From the IMG/VR virus record IMGVR_UViG_2534681762_000007: a stretch of 31,920 nucleotides of DNA; one strand, 5' to 3'. Origin of the DNA: a virus (taxonomy: Duplodnaviria > Heunggongvirae > Uroviricota > Caudoviricetes). This document shows, in pieces, positions 26,563-28,105 of this stretch (the stretch's first letter is position 1; every line of letters starts with the position of its first letter). Made by a program: the position numbers and the translations under genes. The notes beneath the pieces were generated by a model that was not told the DNA's origin, made no database searches, and saw only the letters and a program-made list of their open reading frames with translations.

Positions 26563-28105
26563 AAACGCCCACCATTCCCACCCTTCTGGGACCGGACGGC
26601 ATGACATCGCTGCGTGAATATGCCGGTTATCACGGCGGTGGCAGCGGATTTGGTGGGCAGTTGCGGGCGTGGAACCCACCGGGTGAAAGTGTGGATGCAG
26701 CCCTGCTGCCCAACTTTACCCGTGGCAATGCCCGCGCAGACGATCTGGTACGCAATAACGGCTATGCTGCCAACGCCATCCAGTTGCATCAGGATCATAT
26801 CGTCGGGTCTTTTTTCCGGCTCAGTCATCGCCCAAGCTGGCGCTATCTGGGCATCGGGGAGGAAGAAGCCCGTGCCTTTTCCCGCGAGGTTGAAGCGGCA
26901 TGGAAAGAGTTTGCCGAGGATGACTGCTGCTGCATTGACGTTGAGCGAAAACGCACGTTTACCATGATGATTCGGGAAGGTGTGGCTATGCACGCCTTTA
27001 ACGGTGAACTGTTCGTTCAGGCCACCTGGGATACCAGTTCGTCGCGGCTGTTCCGGACACAGTTCCGGATGGTCAGCCCGAAGCGCATCAGCAACCCGAA
27101 CAATACCGGCGACAGCCGGAACTGCCGTGCCGGTGTGCAGATTAATGACAGCGGCGCGGCGCTGGGATATTACGTCAGCGAGGACGGGTATCCTGGCTGG
27201 ATGCCGCAGAAATGGACATGGATACCCCGTGAGTTACCCGGCGGGCGCGCCTCGTTCATTCACGTTTTTGAACCCGTGGAGGACGGGCAGACTCGCGGTG
27301 CAAATGTGTTTTACAGCGTGATGGAGCAGATGAAGATGCTCGACACGCTGCAGAACACGCAGCTGCAGAGCGCCATTGTGAAGGCGATGTATGCCGCCAC
27401 CATTGAGAGTGAGCTGGATACGCAGTCAGCGATGGATTTTATTCTTGGCGCGAACAGTCAGGAGCAGCGGGAAAGGCTGACCGGCTGGATTGGTGAAATT
27501 GCCGCGTATTACGCCGCAGCACCGGTCCGGCTGGGAGGCGCAAAAGTGCCACACCTGATGCCGGGTGACTCACTGAACCTGCAGACGGCTCAGGACACGG
27601 ATAACGGCTACTCCGTGTTTGAGCAGTCACTGTTGCGGTATATTGCTGCCGGGCTGGGTGTCTCGTATGAGCAGCTTTCCCGGAATTACGCCCAGATGAG
27701 CTACTCCACGGCACGGGCCAGTGCGAACGAGTCGTGGGCGTACTTTATGGGGCGGCGAAAATTCGTCGCATCCCGTCAGGCGAGCCAGATGTTTCTGTGC
27801 TGGCTGGAAGAGGCCATCGTTCGCCGCGTGGTGACGTTACCTTCAAAAGCGCGCTTCAGTTTTCAGGAAGCCCGCAGTGCCTGGGGGAACTGCGACTGGA
27901 TAGGCTCCGGTCGTATGGCCATCGATGGTCTGAAAGAAGTTCAGGAAGCGGTGACGACTATCAGGAAATTTTTGCCCAGCAGGTCCGTGAAACGATGGAG
28001 CGCCGCGCAGCCGGTCTTAAACCGCCCGCCTGGGCGGCTGCGGCATTTGAATCCGGACTGCGACAATCAACAGAGGAGGAGAAGAGTGACAGCAGAGCTG
28101 CGTAA
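26559..28105 (+). pseudogene. B: Portal protein B with internal deletion/frameshift near 27950; N-terminal frame now runs into C
   Basis: N-terminal ~465 aa match lambda B; after ..GLKEVQEAV the frame changes; the native B C-terminus (..GDDYQEIFAQQVRETMERRAAGLKPPAWAAAAFESGLRQSTEEEKSDSRAA, stop 28103..28105) is in another frame; gene about 55 nt shorter than lambda B as I recall it. Confidence 0.85.

Follow-up and report, generated by a model that had tools for sequence, protein, structure and literature searches.

In the enterotoxigenic Escherichia coli strain ThroopD, the portal gene (B) of a lambda-like prophage has very probably undergone a real 55-bp deletion of the microhomology type, which is private to this strain, would leave a dead portal and is best seen as part of the neutral decay of a defective prophage. 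The strain comes from a Dallas patient and dates from the 1970s (PMC4309559). The 31,920 nt analysed here, called the window below, form the end of NCBI contig AQEJ01000005.1 (523,891 bp; assembly GCA_000355115.2).

A 55-bp gap between direct repeats in gene B

The late genes of the window prophage stand in the same order as those of phage lambda (Nu1-A-W-B-C-D-E), and a blastn comparison of the window with lambda (NC_001416) yields two collinear blocks, window 23725-27954 matching lambda 1-4231 (98.2% nucleotide identity) and window 27948-30070 matching lambda 4280-6402 (97.4% identity). In the window, 7 nt belong to both blocks, and in lambda 55 nt are passed over between them, this being the only indel in the 6.3 kb compared. 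A local MAFFT alignment of the two sequences likewise contains a single clean 55-column gap, with point differences only and no second indel elsewhere. The DNA absent from the window is TGCTGATAGAAGCCGGACTGAGTACCTACGAGAAAGAGTGCGCAAAACGCGGTGA (lambda 4232-4286, or an equivalent register), and reads carrying the lambda-type 55 bp would be recognized by TGCTGATAGAAGCCGGACTGAG... as their mark.

In lambda, a copy of the heptamer GCGGTGA stands at either end of the 55-bp segment (4225-4231 and 4280-4286), and both copies are also found, at the same place and with the 55 bp between them, in the prophage of E. coli E7476. A sole copy remains in the window, at the deletion junction (27948..27954, + strand), as located by the MAFFT gap, the overlapping blastn blocks and a side-by-side comparison of lambda, E7476 and the window. 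The initial annotation, made from the sequence alone, had placed a deletion near 27950, put its size at about 55 nt, a length not divisible by three, and estimated the distance between the B and C starts to be about 55 nt shorter than in lambda. Both estimates prove exact, the deletion being of 55 bp and the two starts lying 1527 nt apart in the window (26559 and 28086) and 1582 nt apart in lambda (2836 and 4418); the possibility that lambda B has the same length here is disposed of by the alignment, in which lambda B is the longer by 55 nt.

The gap also separates the window from its closest relatives. Over the 6.3-kb head region, the best 12 relatives (99.0-99.1% identity) span 6,400-6,401 nt versus 6,346 nt in the window, and are thus 54-55 nt longer (exactly 55 in 11 of the 12). 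All the matches listed for a 501-nt region (25 phage records and 30 E. coli genomes) span 556 nt, in two pieces. Since all the close relatives examined cover 55 nt more than the window, the gap is not a chance pattern.

Fusion of the B and C reading frames

Lambda B (2836-4437) and C (4418-5737) are annotated as separate genes. The window has no separate 533-codon B ORF ending 20 nt inside C; the six-frame ORF list has instead one ORF of 948 codons (26559..29405, + strand) that holds B and C in a single frame, and another of 123 aa (27734..28105, + strand) that ends in ...DDYQEIFAQQVRETMERRAAGLKPPAWAAAAFESGLRQSTEEEKSDSRAA and a stop codon, the authentic C-terminus of lambda gpB. The 948-aa read-through ORF had been reported in the initial annotation, and both ORFs are found as it described them. 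It had also placed a change of frame after ...GLKEVQEAV, following some 465 residues of lambda B, which agrees with what is observed: residues 1-465 match and residues 466-509 are out of frame.

The ORF begins with an intact part of the portal gene, codons 1-465 (26559..27953, + strand), recognized by nucleotide identity and by Pfam (PF05136 Phage_portal_2, residues 32-400, profile positions 2-354 of 354, E=3.6e-96). It continues with 44 out-of-frame codons (TTIRKFLPSRSVKRWSAAQPVLNRPPGRLRHLNPDCDNQQRRRR; 27954..28085, + strand, from translation), which are the 3' part of B taken in the C frame and which join B(1-465) to C. Residue 510 corresponds to the GTG start codon of C, read as valine, and the complete 439-residue C follows. 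What is left of the B 3' end, gpB codons 484-533 (GDDYQEIF...SRAA) with their stop codon, is stranded out of frame with the B start at 27950..28105 (+ strand), where it makes up the C-terminal portion of the mechanically called ORF 27734..28105.

The arithmetic of the deletion accounts for this arrangement, as 55 equals 54 + 1 and codon 466 onward therefore falls into the C frame. Upstream of the C start, lambda has just 55 open codons in this frame, which is closed by a stop at 4250. This stop sits within the deleted segment, so the deletion both shifts the frame and removes the upstream barrier. Programmed frameshifting and a conserved natural fusion were considered and rejected, because the change of frame stems from missing DNA and is not conserved among relatives. 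It may be added that many annotations place the C start 45 codons too far upstream, at the GTG within the second copy of GCGGTGA, giving a 484-aa 'minor capsid protein C'.

Gene C itself, which encodes the S49 head protease/scaffold, is intact (28086..29405, + strand, 439 codons from its own GTG start). It differs from lambda gpC by 12 substitutions and no indel, and matches PF01343 Peptidase_S49 (E=1.5e-43). The sequence just upstream of the GTG, GAGGAGGAGAAGA, is unchanged from lambda, the nested Nu3 start lies at window 28800, and C, Nu3 and D all keep their own start signals. To judge from the sequence, free gpC and Nu3 could still be produced from the deleted allele.

Loss of most of the portal crown

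Lambda gpB is divided into a wing (residues 24-249 and 368-452), a stem (250-279 and 343-367), a clip (280-342) and a crown (453-511), with the final 20 residues left out of the structural model (PMC10721106). Solved structures of lambda gpB comprise PDB 8K38 and six further entries, 8K39 and 8XOT among them. Residues 1-465 of the window allele are those of lambda gpB (NP_040583.1) apart from two substitutions (S37A and S42G), with the same Phage_portal_2 match. The window allele differs from lambda gpB in being without nt 4232-4286, in having lost residues 466-533 in frame and in being fused to gpC. When projected on the domain map, the lesion leaves the wing, stem, clip and first 13 crown residues in place and costs the protein 46 of its 59 crown residues (466-511) and the C-terminal tail. 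Eighteen B codons are deleted and the remainder of B downstream is out of frame, so the window allele does not encode a full crown (453-511) and C-terminal tail in frame; 483 foreign residues are appended after gpB residue 465 in their stead.

The read-through product would thus consist of B(1-465), a 44-residue linker and the whole of C. Being without most of the crown and without the tail, and with an appendage of 483 residues, it would most likely be a dead portal, and loss of portal function in ThroopD is likely on the basis of the domain map. The portal is required for lambda head assembly. A literature search returned nothing specific on the effects of crown-domain truncation or C-terminal truncation on lambda gpB; in some other phages, portals withstand truncation of, or fusion to, their C-terminal region.

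The deletion in separate assemblies

A sequencing or assembly error had been offered in the initial annotation as the alternative to a loss of portal function, and an error confined to one assembler now appears unlikely. When the 948-aa product (GenBank protein EMX01649.1) was looked up by exact sequence, the identical protein was found in contig AQEJ01000005.1 and in the Logan assemblies of SRR447115 and SRR447116, two runs that are tied to ThroopD by 100% sequence identity only, not by name. Over 6,372 nt and 3,647 nt, junction included, these two Logan contigs show 100% identity to the window. With the identical ORF and its flanking DNA present in separate Logan assemblies of two runs, we take the deletion to be real and not the error of one assembler. 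This comparison was made between assemblies, and a read-level artefact is less firmly excluded than an error of that kind.

It nonetheless seems improbable that the 55-bp gap is an artefact of sequencing or assembly and that the true genome has an intact 533-codon B. Some caution is invited by the source, a 2013-era draft assembly with a contig ending in a repeat, and by other entries that have frameshifts resembling indel errors in the same short stretch (P0012 and P0013, discussed below, with further breaks downstream). Against this, three assemblies, produced by different programs from two or more read sets, have the same junction with 100% identical flanks, a clean loss of 55 bp at a 7-bp direct repeat is atypical of short-read chemistry or of homopolymer miscalling, and the 6.3 kb compared with lambda show no other indel.

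One of the Logan contigs, from SRR447115 (locus L004), starts at window 23729, only 4 nt from the equivalent of lambda nucleotide 1, the cos end. This may be a repeat or mosaic boundary common to another prophage in the genome, or it may be a coincidence.

Distribution of the junction

The deletion allele is private to the ThroopD strain or clone. A 75-nt query centred on the junction matched none of 5,426 complete E. coli genomes and none of 50,697 phage records, and exact-pattern scans with the 29-nt junction returned none from species-representative genomes, IMG/VR viral contigs or JGI metagenome contigs. The search of the E. coli genomes was sensitive enough, as a control query of the same length taken 50 nt upstream matched that set at 4,049 places in 2,962 genomes at the same threshold.

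Two proteins from other E. coli chromosomes that fall in one cluster with the ThroopD product, P0012 (573 aa) and P0013 (384 aa), also pass from the B frame to the C frame, within about 20 codons downstream of the junction. Their frames slip after ...STYEK and after ...ECAK, through different single-base events and with extra breaks further on. We do not count them as instances of the same event; they are probably unrelated indel errors of long-read assembly.

Other lesions of the prophage

The ThroopD prophage adjoins ybhC, in the lambda attachment region. The window runs from ybhC through int, xis, exo/bet/gam, a cI-like repressor gene and replication genes to a DLP12-like block (emrE, ybcK, rusA, quuD, an ompC-like porin gene, essD/rrrD/rzpD and a bor/iss-like gene), and ends with the lambda-like genes Nu1-A-W-B-C-D-E. 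Beside the deletion in B, two of these genes are interrupted by insertion sequences. The excisionase gene xis contains a complete IS1 of 768 bp (2609..3376, - strand; PF03400 DDE_Tnp_IS1, E=5.9e-78, in ORF 2624..3127), bordered by a 9-bp target duplication (CTGCATTCG, at 2600-2608 and 3377-3385). When mapped onto E7476, the insertion site falls within xis (12467-12685), about 26-28 codons in. The neighbouring integrase ORF (1419..2489, - strand, 356 aa) has its full length.

The major capsid gene E is reduced to a 5' fragment of about 89 of its 341 codons (29803..30070, + strand), cut by an insertion sequence at the point where the lambda match ends (window 30070, lambda 6402; lambda E lies at 6135-7160). 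The corresponding window ORF (29776..30087) contains MSMYTTAQLL... and then runs into the inserted DNA. The inserted element belongs to the IS66 family and occupies the window from there to the contig end (30071..31920, + strand), with tnpA (30124-30801), tnpB (30801-31148) and the start of the transposase gene. It contains the Pfam domains HTH_Tnp_1 and TnpB_IS66 and is 99.2% identical to an ISCro1-family IS66-like element that is sited elsewhere in E7476. Contig and window both end inside this element, short of the 3' part of E and of the tail genes. The junction between E and the IS66-family element is absent from the 5,426 complete E. coli genomes.

The prophage is thus a defective one, with lesions in an excision gene (xis::IS1) and in two virion genes (the 55-bp deletion in B and E::IS66). 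It would probably be without normal excision and without an intact major capsid gene, given the lesions in xis and E. The integrase gene, the replication and lysis genes, the terminase genes and W, C and D are full-length ORFs, as judged by lambda lengths for Int, terminase, W, C and D and by the annotated gene set of E7476 for the remainder. Identity to lambda still stands at 97-98% in the late genes nearby, and with Nu1, A, W, C and D at their full lambda lengths, the decay appears recent.

A close counterpart is the prophage of E7476, one example of the E. coli prophages with an intact lambda-like portal gene at ybhC. This prophage has the same ybhC integration site and the same mosaic of a DLP12-like block and lambda-like head genes, and is 99.3% identical around B, where its portal gene is intact (1602 nt; WP_001316944.1). 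It differs from the ThroopD prophage in that the 55 bp are present, E is intact and the IS66-like element lies between ylcG and quuD rather than in E.

The accessory genes of the ThroopD prophage contrast with its damaged xis, B and E, as the cargo at 14130-16299 and 19802-20884 (emrE, the ybcK recombinase gene, the ompC-like porin gene and the bor/iss-like lipoprotein gene) consists of full-length ORFs or matches the E7476 annotation. A 317-aa ORF directly downstream of the cI-like repressor gene (9488-10441, - strand; repressor gene at 10503..11231, - strand) lies where rexAB stands on the lambda map. No Pfam family matches its product, which PADLOC assigns to PDC-S42 (E=3.4e-86) and thereby marks as a candidate for defence; the segment in which it lies differs from that of the E7476 relative.

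In the cryptic prophages DLP12, Rac and Qin of K-12, morphogenetic and excision functions have been lost through insertion sequences, deletions and frameshifts, and accessory genes are intact. The ThroopD prophage resembles them in its damaged excision and virion genes and in its intact accessory genes (the bor/iss-like, porin and emrE genes and the PDC-S42 candidate), and differs in being at an early stage of decay, with three lesions visible in 32 kb.

Neutral decay or a functional fusion

The best reading of the loss of B is neutral decay among late genes that are not under selection, rather than an adaptation. With xis interrupted and no intact capsid gene, there would be no selection for B, and the two insertions make the B lesion one step in a general decay of the prophage. 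It is, in biological terms, an ordinary deletion by which one gene of a defective lambdoid prophage became a pseudogene.

The opposite reading, that the B-C product is a selected, functional fusion of portal and protease, or that the frame is corrected in translation by programmed frameshifting and the portal remains active, is very unlikely. The portal core (the Pfam match to residues 32-400) and the whole of C do remain intact within one ORF, and a tethered protease is sterically conceivable, the crown of portal proteins in general facing the capsid interior, where gpC acts. Yet the arrangement is absent from all of the roughly 4,049 homologues that complete E. coli genomes contain and from all the phage, viral or metagenome collections searched, and the destruction of E and xis by the IS66-family element and IS1 leaves no working head pathway on which selection could act. 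Correction of the frame could not return the 18 deleted crown codons even if the authentic C-terminus were restored. We give equally little credence to the specific proposal that B(1-465), the linker and C form a portal ring with twelve tethered copies of the head protease/scaffold in the prohead; if this were true, the protein would be a natural portal-protease fusion and the crown domain of lambda would be dispensable.

The neutral loss of B in ThroopD may be compared with the frameshift in stf of the laboratory 'wild type' of lambda (PMC10721106). In both cases a frameshift disables a structural gene of lambda type, but the stf lesion affects dispensable side tail fibres of a viable phage, whereas that of ThroopD affects the portal of an already defective prophage.

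Origin of the deletion

A direct repeat at both ancestral breakpoints, the loss of the interval between its copies and the retention of exactly one copy are what slipped-strand or microhomology-mediated deletion classically leaves behind. The DNA between the two GCGGTGA copies would accordingly have been removed by one of these processes, with one copy kept.

A deletion hot spot, in which a hairpin would pair the repeats and the loss would be expected to recur in B, is the least probable of the alternatives, for although the breakpoints lie at an exact 7-bp direct repeat with copies 55 bp apart, the interval as single-stranded DNA folds no better than shuffled sequence (minimum free energy -5.1 kcal/mol, z = +1.08, with 179 of 200 shuffles folding at least as well), lambda B has 13 direct-repeat pairs of at least 7 bp within 100 nt, and the deletion has not recurred among the thousands of copies searched. 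We therefore reject both hairpin assistance and a special status for this repeat pair. An Rfam scan of the whole window detected no RNA family, at the deletion site or elsewhere.

Implications

The main value of the finding lies in a caution on annotation. The 948-aa entry EMX01649.1, recorded as 'phage portal protein, lambda family', represents a B pseudogene that a frameshift has fused to C, and is unfit as a reference sequence for either portal or protease. It clusters with gpC proteins at 90% identity, and could mislead surveys of domain architecture into recognizing a portal-S49 protease fusion. For the biology of lambdoid prophages, the three independent lesions of the ThroopD prophage offer a clean and datable case of early prophage decay in a clinical enterotoxigenic E. 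coli isolate of 1975.
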